Part shown: positions 7,801 to 14,669 of the stretch, piece by piece
Numbering within the stretch: position 1 is the stretch's first letter
Layout of the letters: every line of letters starts with the position of its first letter
Origin: an uncultured Nitrososphaerota archaeon
GTDB taxonomy: Archaea > Thermoproteota > Nitrososphaeria > Nitrososphaerales > Nitrosopumilaceae
DNA length: 64,000 nt
Reading direction: 5' to 3'
Assembly (NCBI GenBank): GCA_963824385.1
Contig: CAWGPD010000002.1
Coordinates: 64,001 to 128,000, forward strand
The notes under the pieces: generated by a model
Seen by the model: the letters and a program-made list of their open reading frames with translations, nothing else
Database searches by the model: none
What the model was told of the DNA's origin: nothing
Program-made: the position numbers and the translations under genes

Positions 7801-10459
7801 CTAGCCGGATGTACAACCGCTGTATCCACATTCAATGCATACACTGCATCCCTCTGCAAATACCAAGTTGTTTTTACATGTAGGACAGAGTCTCTCTTCC
7901 ATTTGTTCTGGTGTAAGTGTTGGCGTTGGAGCAGATACTACATTATCTGGAATTTTTATCTGAAGTGCTCGTTCTATCTCAGTTTTTAGATATGCATTTG
8001 TGACATTCTTTGAGATATAGTCTGTAACAAATGGACTTGGAGTAACTTGGAAATTCTTTTGGACATCCTTTCCAGTCATGTGTAATACTTGTTCATGTCT
8101 TGAACCATCTCTAAAGACAGTAATTCCTTTTAGACCGAGGTCATGTGCTAATAGATATGCGGCTTTAACATCATCAGATGAAACGTCGCTTGGCATATTG
8201 ATTGTCTTTGCAATTGCATTACCTATCCATTTTTGCCATACTCCCTGAGCCATTAGATGGTCTGCCCAGTGAATGTCCATTGCTGTAACAAATATCTTCT
8301 GCATCCATTCTGGGATCTCAGCGATTCCTTTTACAGAACCGTAGTTATTTGCAATCTTCTCCAGAATTTGCTCGCTGTATAGTCCATGCTCCTTGAGTAC
8401 TGCTTCAAATATTTTATTTGTATAGAAGAATCTGCCTACTGTTACTCTCTTTTCAAAGACCAGGGCAAACATTGGTTCCATTCCATTTGAGCAATCAGTG
8501 TATCATTGATAGTGTACCAGTAGGAGCAACTGTAGTTGTTAGAACATTTCTAATGCCATGTTTCTGAATCTTGGCAATCAAAGCATCCCAATCATAAGTA
8601 CGAGCACTTTTTGGTTTCTCATAATATCCAGCAATAGGAATCTTAGCTTCTGGATATTCTGTTTTTGAGCACAGTGGAAATGATCCTCGTGTCTTTGCAA
8701 GTGCAATACTTTCTTCCATTGAATAATATGTTAATGCCTCAGCAAGTTTCTCTTGGAATTCGTATCCTTCTTGGGAATTGTATGGAATTCTTAATTTGAA
8801 TAAGAGATCAGCAACTCCCATTACTCCAAGTCCGATTCTTCGAGAATCTTTAGATGCCTTGTCAATTTCCGGAATTGGATATGTATTAACATCAATTACA
8901 TTATCAAGGAATCTTGTTGTTTTTCTTATTGTTTCTTCATATCGTTGCCAGTCAAATTCGTATTGACCATCTGCTTTTCTCTTGACATAGTTAGATAGAT
9001 TGATGGAACCAAGATTACATGATTCGTATGGATAGAGACTTTGTTCACCACATGGGTTGGTAGCTCTAATTGGTCCACCTCTTGCTTTTGCAAATACATT
9101 GTATTTGTTAATAATATCAAAGAAGATTAGTCCTGGTTCGCCACTCTTCCATGCAGAAAGTGCAATCAAGTCAATCAGATTATGTGCATTTATTTCTCTT
9201 ACAGGAGTTCTCTCTTTTGGACTTCGAAGGACAAATTTTCCATCCGCTGAATTAATTAGTGCTTCCCAAAAGTCTTCCCAAATTCCTACACTTACATTAA
9301 AGTTTTCTAAAACTCCTGGTTTTGTTTTTGCAGTGATAAATTTCTCAACGTCTGGGTGCCATGCCTCAATGATTCCCATGTTTGCACCTCTTCTTTTTCC
9401 ACCTTGTTTTACTACTTCAGTAACAGTATTGATGATACTCATAAAGGAGACAGGACCTGAAGTTACTCCAGATGTTGAGGCCACCATATCTCCTTCTTGT
9501 CTTAAATCTGAATAGTTGATACCAACTCCTCCACCTGACTTGAAGATCAATGCAGCGTCAGAAGACGATTTCATTATTCTTTCCATGTCATCTTCCATTG
9601 CTAGGACAAAACACGCAGAAAGTTGTCCTAATCTTGCACCAGCATTCATCATAGTTGGTGAATTTGGTAGAAAGTCCTGAGCAATCATTAGATCAGTATA
9701 TTCCTGAATTCTTTCAGCATATTGTTCAAACTTATTTGCAGCCAACATAGTCAACAGTTCACGGAAGCTGACTTTCATCTGGCCGTATTTTTCTAAATCA
9801 ATATAGTGATTTATCAATGATCTAAAGTGATACTTGTTTAGATAGTATTTTCCTACTTTGAATTTATAGTCAAAGTCATCAAGTTTTTCTAGATACTTTG
9901 CTGCCTCTTCAATACTATGAGTATAGCCACCTTCAATTTGAAATACAGATGGATCTCTTATGATATCCGCAATGCCTACAAGAATTGCAACTCTTTCAAA
10001 CATTTCACCTGGACTTTCAGTTATCTGACCTTTGTTATTTCTAAGTAAATATCGGGATGCTAAAACTCGTAAGCAATTAAGATCGAATTTTTTTGCTACA
10101 CTATCAAGAGCCTTTGATTCTAGAACCTTCATTTTTTCTTCTCTAAGTCGTCTTCGTTCATGTCTATACAGGATGTACGCCTTTGCAATCTCTCCTAGTC
10201 CTTCCTCAATCAGAGTAGACTCTACCATATCTTGGACATCTTCTACGCTTGGTGCTTCTGAACCAGAAAATCCACGGTTGACAAGTTTTGTAAGAACATG
10301 ATTTGCAAGCTTGTCTGCTAGTCCATGATCTGATCTTCCGCAAGCTACGAGTGCTTTGTATATCGCGCTTGAAATTTTATCTCTTTGGAAATCTGATACT
10401 CGACCATCGCGTTTCTTTACTTGAAGGATCGAATTCTCTATTTGTGAAAAATCTGTCAA
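7801..10459 (-). CDS. nrdJ: Class II (adenosylcobalamin) ribonucleotide reductase with N-terminal ATP cone (one +1 frameshift near 8497)
   Basis: VKKRDG ATP cone, FLPNSPT, SACFV, TNPCGEQ, ESCNLG, VAPTGT and a C-terminal Cys cluster. The two ORFs join across MI(x)DCSNGMEP. Confidence 0.95.
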
Positions 10460-10462
10460 CTT

Positions 10463-10498
10463 ACTCCCCGTACCCCTATCAAATGGGAGTTAAATAAA
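10463..10498 (-). promoter_or_regulatory. nrdJ promoter: TATA-like TTTATTTA plus inverted repeat ACTCCC-N16-GGGAGT
   Basis: TATA about 30 nt upstream of the TTG start; 6-bp inverted repeat between the TATA and the start. Confidence 0.4.
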
Positions 10499-10748
10499 CA
10501 CTGCGGCAAAAAATAATTTTCTAAAGCTAAACTTTGGATCAATTTTGTTGACACCATTACGATTTTCATAGTATGAGATCACTTGAAGAATTACACATAA
10601 AAATTTAATCTACGCCTGAGATCAAATTTTCAGTTTAGCCCTTGGATCACAAATAACAGTTCGAAGAATTATTCATTAAAAATTCAAATAAAAGTTTAGT
10701 TTGATTGAAAAATTTTAATCTGATTATCAGTATTTCCTAAGGTGAGAG

Positions 10749-12845
10749 TTATGCAAGTATGTAAGGCGATTTGCATACTGAACATTTTTCGGCGATCTTT
10801 TCCTCTTTGAGACCACAGTTACTACATATGGGTACTTTTCTAATTGGTCTGAAAGATCCTAATAGATCACCTGCTTTTTCAATTGCTTTCTTAATTCCTG
10901 AAGAATCCATTGCGTCTGGGATCTTTAATTGAACTAGTAGTCCGCCGTTGAGTATCTTTGAGAAATAGTTTGATTCTACAATCTTTTCATTCTTAGGATT
11001 CATCTCTGTTATCTCAGAGGCATCAAGTACAATTCCTTCAGAATAGGACTCGCCCATGACATGTTGATTAATTGATGTCTTGCCATATTTTTCACCGTCA
11101 AGCGAGGAGAAACGGCTCGCTGCATCACTCTCAGTCATAGTTACGATAACATTATCTCCCATTTCCTTTCCTTTCTTTGTGGCTACTTCCATAGCAGTGT
11201 TTATCACTTTAGCCAGGATTTCGTGTCCAGCCTTGTTGTTTTCAAATCCTAAAATACCATAAACTGCCTCTTTGAGTCCTATTAGATTAACAACTAGAGT
11301 TACTGATCCCTTTTGCATATACTGAGTATTGTTTGCAAGAATTGGATTAAGACCACGTCTTGTTAGATCAGATATTTCCTTCTTTCTCAAAGACATGGCT
11401 GCAAGTGCTGGTTTCATCAATAGTGCAAGTCTTGCTCTGAAATAGGTTTCATCTTTGTTAGATTCAAAAGCCAATCTTGGCATATTGATTGATAGAGATT
11501 CTAAATTAATAGAGGTTGTTCCAACGTTCTTTGTATCTATTCGTGCCAAGCCTTTGTTAGATACCAAGCCTTTAGCAAACATAATGTGTCCTCCTAATGC
11601 AATTATATCTGCCAAAATTTCTGAATAATCACTTATCTTGGCTTTTTCATAATCAACTATCAATCCTATTGAAGGAATTGGTGTTGACTTTACATATTTT
11701 TTGTAGGCTTGAAGAATAGTATTAACTAATTTTGGTTCTGTTCCAATAGAAATTCTAAATGAAGTAAGTGTTCCATTCTTTCCGTATTTAGATCCTGTAG
11801 ATATTTTTGCAAAGCAGCTTGCAAGTTTTTCTTCAATTTCAGGTAAATTCTTGGAATATTTTTGTAATACAGCAACTAATCCGTCCATTATTACTTCTTG
11901 TGATGCTTCTTTTATGAGAAGACTTGTCAATAGAGACAGAGATGTGAAGAGATCATCTAGTGAATTTGGTGGTGATGTTCTTGTAACACCCAAGAATTTT
12001 CCTCGCAGATCAACACCATCCTCTATAAGTTCCTTAATGTTTACAAATATGGTATCTGGAAGAAGTGACCATAATCCAGCATTTGTAATATGAAGATCTC
12101 CTGAGAGATGAGAGTCAGCAACGTCCTTGGGTAATGTGTTTAAGACAAGATATTCACCAAATACTGTTTGTCCCGTTTTAAACAATAGACCCTCCACGCC
12201 ATTATGTATACCATCTACGTTGGTTAACAATTCATGAATATCATAGCCAGGTAATCCAAATCTTGCAAGTTTGTGCCTATAATCTTCGTGTCCTTGTTCC
12301 AAGAGGACAGAGTTAACCATCTCACGTATGAGTGAGGATGTAAGGTAAGATGTCTGGAATTTGTATATTCTATTCTCTACTTCCTCAGTTATCTTTTGAG
12401 CAAGTTCAAGTGGAAGGCTGCCTTCGCGAACCAGGGATTGGATAATTTTATGAGAGTTGAATTCTTCTATTGATTCATGTGAAGTTCGTACATACATTTT
12501 GCCACTTTCAATGATAGATCGCTCTTCAATCTGTCTTGCAAGACTTAGGACTAGTTTTCCCAAGTTAGTAATTGTGTATCTTCTTTCAGACTTGTTTAGA
12601 GCTACAAGAGATTGTCTTAGTAATTTTCTTAAATGATATGCAAACTTACCACTTTCCTTTTTTGATTTAAAGCCAGCTAGAGATTTTAGTTCAGAATAAG
12701 TAAGAGGTCCTTTTGAGTTTAAGATACGTAAAATATCAATTCTGTTTGGACTTGCCATAACAGAGAAAATCATTCTTACACGCTTTGATGCTGATTGTAA
12801 TATTCCACCACGTTTTGGATCTCCAAAGTCTTCACTTAGCTCCAT
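10749..12845 (-). CDS. wHTH (ArsR-like) + ATP cone + degenerate class III RNR (NrdD-like) fusion protein
   Basis: N-terminal RIDILRIL..LTYSEL..FAYHLRKL wHTH, MYVRTS..EEFN..KI ATP cone, NrdD-like ADSHLSGDLHI, INMPRLA, RF..LD.EKYG and GG motifs, C-terminal CxxC-CxxC. No glycyl-radical motif. Confidence 0.8.
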   Translation of the reverse strand: MELSEDFGDPKRGGILQSASKRVRMIFSVMASPNRIDILRILNSKGPLTYSELKSLAGFKSKKESGKFAYHLRKLLRQSLVALNKSERRYTITNLGKLVLSLARQIEERSIIESGKMYVRTSHESIEEFNSHKIIQSLVREGSLPLELAQKITEEVENRIYKFQTSYLTSSLIREMVNSVLLEQGHEDYRHKLARFGLPGYDIHELLTNVDGIHNGVEGLLFKTGQTVFGEYLVLNTLPKDVADSHLSGDLHITNAGLWSLLPDTIFVNIKELIEDGVDLRGKFLGVTRTSPPNSLDDLFTSLSLLTSLLIKEASQEVIMDGLVAVLQKYSKNLPEIEEKLASCFAKISTGSKYGKNGTLTSFRISIGTEPKLVNTILQAYKKYVKSTPIPSIGLIVDYEKAKISDYSEILADIIALGGHIMFAKGLVSNKGLARIDTKNVGTTSINLESLSINMPRLAFESNKDETYFRARLALLMKPALAAMSLRKKEISDLTRRGLNPILANNTQYMQKGSVTLVVNLIGLKEAVYGILGFENNKAGHEILAKVINTAMEVATKKGKEMGDNVIVTMTESDAASRFSSLDGEKYGKTSINQHVMGESYSEGIVLDASEITEMNPKNEKIVESNYFSKILNGGLLVQLKIPDAMDSSGIKKAIEKAGDLLGSFRPIRKVPICSNCGLKEEKIAEKCSVCKSPYILA

Positions 12846-12913
12846 GAAATTACCTAATTGGCATCGGTAATTAAGATTTTTGACTGATTTGATCTCTACG
12901 GAAGCTTTTTAGA

Positions 12914-13075
12914 TCAGTTTTTCTGTACGTCTACACTAAATTCAGATGGAGATAGACTCTGCCCACATGAGGGACATTTACTGTTATACGGTCTCATCAC
13001 ATCTTTTATTGATTTTAGCATACGCATATTTGCAATTTTAGCTCCACATTTTCCACAAACAACATCTACAGACAT
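12914..13075 (-). CDS. Small zinc-ribbon protein (53 aa)
   Basis: Below the ORF-track cutoff. MSVDVVCGKCGAKIANMRMLKSIKDVMRPYNSKCPSCGQSLSPSEFSVDVQKN with two CxxC motifs. Confidence 0.8.
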   Translation of the reverse strand: MSVDVVCGKCGAKIANMRMLKSIKDVMRPYNSKCPSCGQSLSPSEFSVDVQKN

Positions 13076-13147
13076 TTCAAGTTATGTCAGATCAAATATT
13101 ATAAAAGAGATTTTTTGAATTTTTTTAATCAGTTTAATAAATTTAGT

Positions 13148-13513
13148 TTATTGTTTCTCGATTATGATTCCACGTTGATCGTAACCGGTTATTTTTACTC
13201 TTGTTCCAAGAGGAAGATCCGCGGGGGAATTTATGCCTGCCATAAAACCTGAGATCCTCAATTCAGACTCGTCTAATTTCATAACTACCCATGCATATGG
13301 AACATATTCTTCGTATCCTTCAGGTGCTACAGTGATTATTGTATAGGTTACAATGTAGCCTTTACCATCAATTACAGTATTCTCAAATCCTTTGTTTCCA
13401 CAATTTTGACAATAATAAGTCGTTACTAGATGAAGATGACCACATTTAGTACATTTTCTAGTGAGAACTTTTCCCAGTTTTGCATTGTTGGCGAATTCTT
13501 CTTTTGTGAGCAA
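13148..13513 (-). CDS. DUF35 Zn-ribbon/OB-fold protein (thiolase partner)
   Basis: CTKCG..CQNCG followed by GYIVTYT..VAPEG..PY OB fold. Likely TTG start right after the thiolase stop. Confidence 0.88.
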   Translation of the reverse strand: MLTKEEFANNAKLGKVLTRKCTKCGHLHLVTTYYCQNCGNKGFENTVIDGKGYIVTYTIITVAPEGYEEYVPYAWVVMKLDESELRISGFMAGINSPADLPLGTRVKITGYDQRGIIIEKQ

Positions 13514-13514
13514 T

Positions 13515-14669
<1,155 letters not shown>

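Follow-up and report, generated by a model that had tools for sequence, protein, structure and literature searches.

The gene at positions 10749..12845 of the minus strand (stop codon 10749-10751) in a 64,000-nucleotide stretch of contig CAWGPD010000002.1, here called the window, encodes a protein of 698 amino acids (aa) that is a catalytically dead paralogue of NrdD, the class III ribonucleotide reductase (RNR), with an N-terminal winged helix-turn-helix (wHTH) and a cone-fold domain. The gene adjoins nrdJ, which encodes a class II RNR. The protein is most likely an as yet undescribed kind of regulator that acts on DNA-precursor synthesis, and on balance we favour the view that its family consists of transcription factors for RNR and nucleotide-metabolism expression, linked to nrdJ. 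The host, with a genome of 1.68 Mb that is an estimated 86% complete, is an ammonia oxidiser, as an earlier note on this DNA had presumed, and is Nitrosotalea-like; the orthologue in Ca. Nitrosotalea devanaterra is 96% identical to the 698-aa protein, and the best 80 named loci all belong to Nitrosopumilaceae (Nitrosotalea, Nitrosopumilus, Nitrosarchaeum and Nitrosotenuis). The same note had read the protein as a pseudoenzyme that senses ATP/dATP through its cone and possibly dNTPs through a retained specificity site; its outline, an RNR-linked pseudoenzyme regulator, has stood, whereas retention of the site in the barrel is not supported and the cone is non-canonical.

The motifs on which that proposal rested were all found in the open reading frame (ORF), namely MYVRTS at residue 117, RFGLPGYD at 195, ADSHLSGDLHI at 243, LPDT at 262, SINMPRLA at 452, RFSSLDGEKYG at 578 and CKSPYILA at 691. 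Four parts can be distinguished, all on the minus strand. An ArsR/SmtB-type wHTH at residues 26-100 (12546..12770) was recognised by the Pfam families DUF7347 (40.8 bits, cut-off 27.6) and HTH_20 (32.6, cut-off 27) as well as by fold matches. It is followed by an ATP-cone-fold domain at residues 117-195 (12261..12497), which was assigned from Pfam ATP-cone (PF03477; residues 117-189, 39.9 bits against a gathering cut-off of 25.8), fold matches and alignments, and whose hairpin reads V-R-T-S instead of the canonical K-R. Residues 196-670 (10836..12260) form an NrdD-like alpha/beta barrel that has no catalytic Cys and is missing the NxN flap, the loop-2 motif and the TPAE loop, and a C-terminal Zn ribbon made of C674, C677, C688 and C691 (10752..10835) closes the protein, with no glycyl-radical domain after it; the C-terminus lies 7 residues past the last ribbon Cys. 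Pfam NRDD matched residues 442-693 with an E value of 5.7e-24, and the NCBIfam NrdD equivalog TIGR02487 reached 76.2 bits, below its cut-off of 326.35. Apart from the four ribbon residues, the only Cys in the protein is C344.

The relationship to NrdD was clear at the level of the family and of the predicted fold. With the single full-length sequence, a phmmer search of the PDB gave only marginal NrdD matches (E 0.02), and the cone region alone found nothing better than chance (E 0.47 and worse), so that a search with the family profile was needed; this returned NrdD chains with E values of 4e-40 to 6e-31 and matched the N-terminus to HlyU and NolR. A full-length AF2 model built from a 76-sequence alignment (pLDDT 87.9, pTM 0.80) had only class III RNRs as its top Foldseek matches, led by the S. 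thermophilus enzyme (9d3x; E 2.4e-20) and followed by those of P. copri (8p2c/8p28), T. maritima (4col) and phage T4 (1hk8/1h7a), with a probability of 1.0 for 9d3x, 8p2c, 4col and 1hk8 and TM scores on the target of 0.55-0.67, and class I R1 proteins scored far lower. In a separate model of residues 1-200 (pLDDT 86.5), residues 15-114 matched repressors of the ArsR/SmtB/MarR type, including PagR (Z 11.7, root-mean-square deviation (rmsd) 2.1), SmtB (Z 11.5), CzrA and NolR. Residues 115-197 showed a four-helix cone with its N-terminal hairpin and matched the cones of NrdR (7p37; Z 10.9, rmsd 2.1 over 82 aa), NrdB (5olk; Z 10.8) and NrdD (9d3x; Z 10.6, rmsd 1.6). Pfam, alignment, family profile and fold matches thus agree with the earlier description of a dead NrdD joined to a wHTH and a cone.

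The loss of catalysis was followed column by column in an alignment in which 21 short (about 700 aa) and 27 long (about 750 aa) homologues with an HTH were set against 9 true NrdDs from their phylum, each of the latter being above the NrdD cut-off or having Pfam NRDD at full length. All nine true NrdDs were invariant at three Cys columns and at the Gly column, while in neither HTH group was the catalytic residue among the commonest residues tallied there, the sole exception being the glycyl-radical column, where 6 of the 27 long forms have Gly. Specifically, the Cys after the H-x-x-G-x-x-H strand, present in 9/9 true NrdDs, is T265 (the T of LPDT) in the 698-aa protein, and the commonest residues of the 21 short forms in that column were T (13), V (4), A and S; the thiyl Cys-Cys columns of the finger loop correspond to N430/K431 in the MAFFT alignment, and a hidden Markov model alignment to 9d3x and 8p23 set kGLR of the family opposite mGCR. 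The strand-A Cys and the thiyl loop are therefore gone, as had been noticed from the sequence. Both HTH groups have further lost columns that do not vary among the true enzymes, namely the E-N-A-N (NxN) flap, which reads N-V-D-G in the 698-aa protein, the second His and the Asp of the triphosphate motif HxHD, here H252-I-T-N, and T-P-A-E, here T-ES. Not one of the 48 HTH forms has retained the loop-2 motif R-x-G-x-Q-x-x-F, and in the short forms a deletion of about 30 residues follows the loop-2 region, so that the specificity-site retention proposed earlier is not supported. A search for the glycyl-radical motif R[VIT]xG[YF] over the whole 698-aa protein found none, and in the alignment the protein stops short of the S-R-x-x-G-Y columns, which none of the short forms has; in the long forms these columns are decayed, with R in 22/27, G in 6/27 and Y lost. 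By contrast with these losses, the four Zn-ribbon Cys are retained in the HTH forms. For the NxN flap, HxHD, loop 2, Cys416 and Gly711, the roles were taken from PMC11226230 and PMC12662201.

The protein might still be an enzyme, for instance an atypical reductase or a catalyst of some other nucleotide conversion, working without a glycyl radical, and its public annotation as an anaerobic ribonucleoside-triphosphate reductase and its intact, confidently modelled barrel would agree with this. However, all thiyl-radical residues and the activase are missing, C344 is at no catalytic column, the substrate-phosphate motifs are degraded, and the TIGR02487 score is far below its cut-off. We consider this very improbable and close to refuted.

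The partners that a class III enzyme would use were likewise missing. True NrdD (TIGR02487, E 1e-30 or better) was found in 0/43 Nitrosopumilaceae genomes versus 166/301 in the phylum, and NrdG2 was above cut-off in none of 61 Nitrosopumilaceae genomes. No NrdG had been seen in the window, and the search of the host genome, at its estimated completeness, also gave none above cut-off, the best candidate being QueE-like and outside the window. The regulator NrdR (TIGR00244) was not found in the host genome, in which the best match (19 bits against a cut-off of 124.65) was the cone of NrdJ. As a side observation, the genome contains a third ATP-cone ORF besides NrdJ and the regulator (G000:C1:9771-9977, outside the window; 38 bits), within an open frame of 306 aa.

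The nrdJ gene (7801..10459, minus strand) encodes an ATP-cone and an RNR barrel (Pfam ATP-cone, Ribonuc_red_lgN/lgC; NrdJ_Z 541 bits) and is the only RNR barrel gene in the host genome. It starts 289 nt downstream of the regulator gene on the same strand, and in this assembly it is split into two ORFs (8495-10459 and 7801-8481) by one extra base at 8499/8500, where the junction reads ...ATGATACACTGATTGC... In 20 relatives, the two pieces aligned by BLAST are in frame and 18 nt apart, as against 19 nt in the window, and nrdJ is a single ORF in relatives. The base is also absent from the DNA contigs of runs X4 (at least 99% identity) and X5 and from contigs of the RNA library X16, and we regard it as a probable assembly error; the estimate of 86% completeness may be a sign of further indels of this kind. 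For the regulator gene itself, a frameshifted neighbour and an incomplete genome might suggest a decaying pseudogene or an assembly artefact, and the earlier note had allowed that the missing glycyl-radical loop could be due to truncation in the assembly. Yet the frame is intact in every sampled genome, the N-terminal 125 residues are invariant, independent DNA contigs agree with the sequence at 99% identity or above, and orthologues in 43/43 genomes of Nitrosopumilaceae are full length, so that the absence of the loop is not an assembly error. A pseudogene or artefact was therefore ruled out. Metatranscriptome contigs of X15 and X16 cover 11030-12801 of the regulator gene and parts of nrdJ at 90-99% identity; because DNA can occur in such libraries, they give only a weak hint of expression, and no weight either way attaches to the bins without cover at 10681-10860 and 12841-13200.

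Homologues of the protein are numerous. More than 4000 were found, and the 120 best listed are mostly 697-703 aa long and carry the source names 'anaerobic ribonucleoside-triphosphate reductase' or 'ArsR family transcriptional regulator'. A family match was present in 215 of 301 sampled genomes of the phylum and in 43/43 sampled Nitrosopumilaceae. Far from being peculiar to aerobic ammonia oxidisers, the family is widespread in the phylum, often upstream of a real nrdD. Among forms of at least 540 aa in the best 150 of 1138 representatives, none had the canonical glycyl-radical tail motif, although one row has an incidental RTIGY ten residues before its end. Still shorter relatives (545-600 aa) retain the HTH and cone but have lost the Zn ribbon, and more and more of the barrel is missing as relatives get shorter. 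The same Pfam triad recurs in Atlas clusters labelled Nitrososphaerota, Bathyarchaeota, Promethearchaeota and Thermoproteota, and a related HTH and NRDD cluster is labelled Nanobdellota; these labels serve as leads only. Two side observations concern additional copies. In locus L096 (genome G012), positions 458-682 of the minus strand hold a 75-aa stretch whose protein sequence is 100% identical to HTH residues 20-94 of the regulator; it is flanked by stops, has its first Met three residues in, lies 6.3 kb from the full-length gene of that genome, and could represent either a partial duplication or a small HTH gene in its own right. Three other Nitrosopumilaceae genomes have two family matches each.

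A quick maximum-likelihood tree of 57 rows (LG+G4), with three canonical-cone NrdDs as the root, placed the 48 HTH forms in one clade (SH-aLRT 99), sister (100) to the six true NrdDs from those sampled loci where a long form lies next to one; the hairpins of these six read V-R-T-S in three and V-R-x-T-D-G in three. The short forms made up one clade (100) on a long stem, nested among the long forms. The simplest history would be a tandem duplication of nrdD, fusion of one copy to a wHTH and loss of catalysis, with the vestigial glycyl-radical tail being dropped later in the lineage leading to Nitrosopumilaceae. We take the family to be ancient, with its origin beside a real nrdD. We found no description of a wHTH/cone/NrdD-like family in the full-text literature, which does not cover subscription journals, so a prior description is possible, and there was no mention of it in the accessible parts of PMC3019208 or PMC2795772.

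Over 30 Nitrosopumilaceae genomes, residues 26-150, comprising the HTH, the linker and the first half of the cone, were 100% identical, with an overall identity of 59-100% and a barrel identity of 48-65% that rose to about 90% in an island at residues 451-500. This island, the keeping of a whole NrdD barrel and Zn ribbon over a very wide phylogenetic range, and the encoding of the protein in anaerobes together with nrdD and glutaredoxin or thioredoxin would all be in keeping with action at the protein level, in which the dead subunit would bind, sequester or scaffold NrdJ, NrdD (in anaerobes) or a redoxin, or would buffer nucleotides, with the HTH only as a nucleoid tether; since NrdDs are dimeric, heterodimers with the neighbouring enzyme are conceivable. 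However, the HTH and cone rather than the barrel are the most conserved parts, no NrdD partner was found in the Nitrosopumilaceae genomes, and the barrel dwindles in the shorter relatives. Such a role appears unlikely.

The cone of the family is conserved but not canonical. Its hairpin is V119-R120-T121-S122, in which T121 and S122 take the positions where canonical cones carry K-R; the canonical-cone true NrdDs L043, L045 and L057, for example, read V-R-K-R-D-G. According to PMC12662201, the hairpin Lys-Arg pair (Lys9/Arg10 in Escherichia coli NrdA) sits at the nucleotide phosphates, in S. thermophilus NrdD as in the E. coli enzyme. Helix 1 has retained its Lys-Ile as K133-I134 (Lys21/Ile22 in E. 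coli NrdA). Across 76 sequences, V119, F129, I134 and E141 were invariant and R120, S122 and E127 nearly so, and in a 36-sequence N-terminal alignment R120, S122, I134 and E141 were invariant, pointing to a conserved site, though not necessarily one for ATP/dATP. The V-R-T-S hairpin also occurs in three catalytically intact NrdDs (L064, L076 and L077) that adjoin long-form genes. The earlier assignment of an ATP cone thus stands as to fold and Pfam score, but the phosphate-binding pair is missing.

In 30/30 Nitrosopumilaceae loci nrdJ lies directly downstream of the regulator gene, and it is adjacent in 20/20 further loci of this family (family f1), co-oriented in 19 and divergent in one (G020). 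Of the 80 best named loci, 71 likewise have it directly downstream, and the other 9 are on contigs with less than 600 nt left. Wherever there was room to tell, nrdJ adjoined the regulator gene (121/121 loci, one divergent), so the adjacency first noticed in the window is general in the family.

Outside Nitrosopumilaceae, we compared 40 loci (L049-L088) of many families with long-form homologues. A true nrdD was directly downstream in seven of them, with a glutaredoxin gene between in three and a thioredoxin gene after in one; nrdJ was downstream in two, both of family f2 (L061 and L063), and a dCTP deaminase gene lay 13 nt downstream in one (L084). In 17 loci pyrB and/or pyrI stood beside the long-form gene, mostly in convergent orientation, and in six a UMP-kinase-like gene was upstream. 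The surroundings are thus a nucleotide-metabolism neighbourhood conserved across many families.

Comparison of intergenic regions revealed a conserved candidate operator between the two genes. The block GATCTCATACTATGAAAATCGTAATGGTGTCAACAAAATTGATCCAAAG at 10532..10580 (minus strand), located by sequence footprinting with 27 distinct Nitrosotalea-clade intergenic sequences and 20 loci of family f1, is near-invariant across the 27 sequences and contains the inverted repeat GTGTCAA-N5-TTGATCC (10536..10554), 97 nt upstream of the nrdJ start. One Nitrosopumilus-type genome has the perfect dyad GTGTCAA-N5-TTGACAC, which we take as the ancestral form. With up to two mismatches, the repeat had its sole match in the window here, and all eight matches in 318 kb of relatives' loci were at -87 to -98 from the nrdJ start; within the Nitrosotalea clade, it occurs at -87 to -98 in 25 of the 27 intergenic regions, and in family f1 at these positions in 9 of 20. 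Genome-wide, two mismatches gave 20 matches versus 7 for a reversed-pattern control, none of them obviously meaningful. Just upstream, a TATGAA-N-TTCATA palindrome is exact in 7/20 intergenic regions at -106 to -133, and these seven are every exact match in the 318 kb. Both dyads would suit a dimeric wHTH protein.

By position and conservation, a TATA-like sequence TTTATTTAA at 10490..10498 may serve as the nrdJ promoter; it is followed by GGGGAG (10464-10469) and a TTG start at 10459. The putative promoter block of the regulator gene itself, TCAAAAATCTTAATTA with the family consensus TCAcAAgTCTTATTTA, lies at 12868..12883 (minus strand), 23-38 nt before the ATG, and may be a B recognition element and TATA box with a short or absent leader. 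In other genera both promoters contain CACAAGT-TTAT, which is missing from the clade of the window and is therefore taken as general promoter sequence. Other sequence words were tried and set aside. In k-mer counts of the intergenic regions A/T-rich words dominated and the counts were not decisive. About 10 of 19 family loci, including L092, L094, L095 and L102, have clusters of GATC repeats (TGATCC/TGATCT) within 250 nt ahead of the regulator gene, with up to 9 in that span, a local maximum in 16 kb, and none in the genus of the window; as an operator they were rejected, being missing in other loci and no more frequent in the window than elsewhere. In L112, the 597-nt region between regulator gene and nrdJ contains an inserted stretch of some 300 nt, and in it a second, slightly diverged nrdJ promoter block with the GTATCAACAAAATTGATCC repeat and a box resembling TATA.

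Several points weigh against the favoured reading as a transcription factor linked to nrdJ. DNA binding, ligand binding and an effect on nrdJ are each what we infer from sequences and predicted structures. Because the cone is without the Lys-Arg pair, sensing of ATP/dATP is tentative and the ligand may be another; the degraded substrate and specificity machinery of the barrel would likewise give little basis for dNTP sensing by the body of the protein. At up to three mismatches, the GTGTCAA repeat is present in only 9 of 20 Nitrosopumilaceae genomes although the HTH is invariant, and the TATGAA palindrome is degenerate in the window, with two mismatches. No second GTGTCAA-N5-TTGATCC site with up to one mismatch was found in the 1.68-Mb genome, which leaves autoregulation unsupported. 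Finally, 31 of the 40 loci outside Nitrosopumilaceae have no RNR gene within about 8 kb, and the pyrBI and mevalonate-gene neighbours (see below) suggest that some of the synteny is no more than inherited gene order.

The lack of an RNR neighbour in most loci outside Nitrosopumilaceae would be accounted for by a DNA-binding regulator of a broader or different regulon, such as pyrimidine or nucleotide metabolism, replication or the cell cycle, for which RNR adjacency would be a relic of tandem duplication. The pyrB/pyrI, UMP-kinase-like and dCTP deaminase neighbours would fit such a regulon; the adjacency could be historical in view of the sister relationship to adjacent true NrdDs, and the 545-600 aa forms have kept HTH and cone without the Zn ribbon. 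However, a true nrdD was not found in Nitrosopumilaceae, and yet nrdJ, of an unrelated class, adjoins the gene in each locus that has room to tell; family f2 is arranged likewise, so a relic of the nrdD duplication is hard to uphold. In addition, the conserved repeat is unique in the host genome to the region upstream of nrdJ. A broader regulon is accordingly a minority possibility, though one of some weight.

For the favoured reading, a transcription factor linked to nrdJ, we propose the following path. In a widespread archaeal family, duplication of nrdD, gain of an N-terminal ArsR-type winged HTH and loss of all radical-catalysis elements would have produced a dimeric DNA-binding transcription factor. 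Nitrosopumilaceae, in which a true nrdD and nrdG were not found, would have cut the vestigial tail, yet kept the protein beside their sole RNR gene, nrdJ. Its target would be the inverted-repeat block about 80-120 nt upstream of nrdJ, perhaps also its own promoter, and the invariant cone-fold domain would read a small ligand by which expression of RNR and nucleotide-metabolism genes is tuned, with the dead barrel mainly as a scaffold for dimerisation and signal transmission. In archaea, a site upstream of the TATA box fits activation better than repression, and the position of the candidate site upstream of the putative TATA would therefore favour activation. A bolder version, which we put forward only tentatively, is that the family is the missing archaeal counterpart of NrdR, derived from a fossil RNR whose allosteric logic, that of cone and dimeric barrel, it would turn into nucleotide-pool control of RNR and pyrimidine genes whatever the RNR class, with a V-R-T-S cone reading a ligand other than or besides ATP/dATP, across Thermoproteota (Nitrososphaeria and Bathyarchaeia) and, by the Atlas leads, Asgard and DPANN archaea.

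NrdR is the nearest known system. Like the 698-aa protein, it has a small cone-fold domain joined to a DNA-binding domain and a gene linked to RNR genes; the cone of Streptomyces coelicolor NrdR (7p37) superposes on that of the 698-aa protein, and the presumed logic, nucleotide-dependent control of RNR transcription, is the same. It differs in that NrdR has a Zn ribbon directly before the cone, whereas the 698-aa protein has an ArsR-type wHTH there, about 500 residues of dead NrdD after the cone, and no Lys-Arg hairpin in the cone; moreover, the candidate site here is about 40-60 nt upstream of the TATA-like box and does not overlap the start site. NrdR is described as rare in archaea in the accessible part of PMC9110341. 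With class III NrdDs (T4 1h7a/1hk8, T. maritima 4coi, P. copri 8p23 and S. thermophilus 9d3x), the protein shares the barrel, the N-terminal cone and the C-terminal Zn ribbon, but it is without the glycyl-radical domain, the thiyl Cys, the second Cys, the NxN flap, the loop-2 motif and the activase, its HxHD is degraded, and a wHTH has been added. The ArsR/SmtB repressors (PagR, SmtB, CzrA, NolR and HlyU) have the same winged HTH topology (Z 10.7-11.7, rmsd 2.1-3.5; HTH_20 above cut-off), but they are proteins of about 100 aa in which the HTH domain itself senses metal or redox state, whereas here the HTH is the N-terminal tenth of 698 aa and the presumed sensor is the cone or the dead enzyme. 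Enzyme-derived transcription factors include the ROK-family repressors, which come from sugar kinases, and BirA, PutA and NadR, several of which are still catalytically active. They are alike in concept, an enzyme fold being reused as the sensor or scaffold of a DNA-binding regulator of its own pathway; to our knowledge, none of them stems from a ribonucleotide reductase.

Two further elements of the neighbourhood lie upstream of the regulator gene. Directly upstream is a gene for a 53-aa Zn-ribbon protein with CxxC...CxxC (12914..13075, minus strand), characterised by an invariant MLK and SxEF and present in 20/20 and 80/80 Nitrosopumilaceae loci and in 0/40 loci of other families; a family search gave no assignment for it. 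A predicted complex of the 698-aa and 53-aa proteins, run without controls, scored 0.00, which gives no verdict for or against an interaction. Beyond it, 13148-14669 (minus strand) holds a DUF35-type (zf-ChsH2/OB_ChsH2_C) gene and a thiolase-like gene. This pair is also upstream of the long forms in L079 and L080, and genes for HMG-CoA reductase or synthase take that upstream place in L064 and L068; the recurring pair makes part of the neighbourhood probably old gene order, and it looks like an old synteny with mevalonate-pathway genes.

Control of RNR transcription in archaea is largely unknown, and a conserved candidate regulator with a candidate operator makes the question directly testable, both in the globally important ammonia-oxidising archaea and in uncultured anaerobes. 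The family also offers a clear case of a whole radical enzyme turning into a pseudoenzyme regulator with the intermediate stages still alive, from forms of about 760 aa with a decayed tail beside the parent enzyme, through forms of about 700 aa without the tail, to those of about 600 aa or less, which have no Zn ribbon. Finally, it corrects a frequent misannotation, since the name 'anaerobic ribonucleoside-triphosphate reductase' in aerobic Nitrosopumilaceae could mislead metabolic reconstructions as to their anaerobic capacity.

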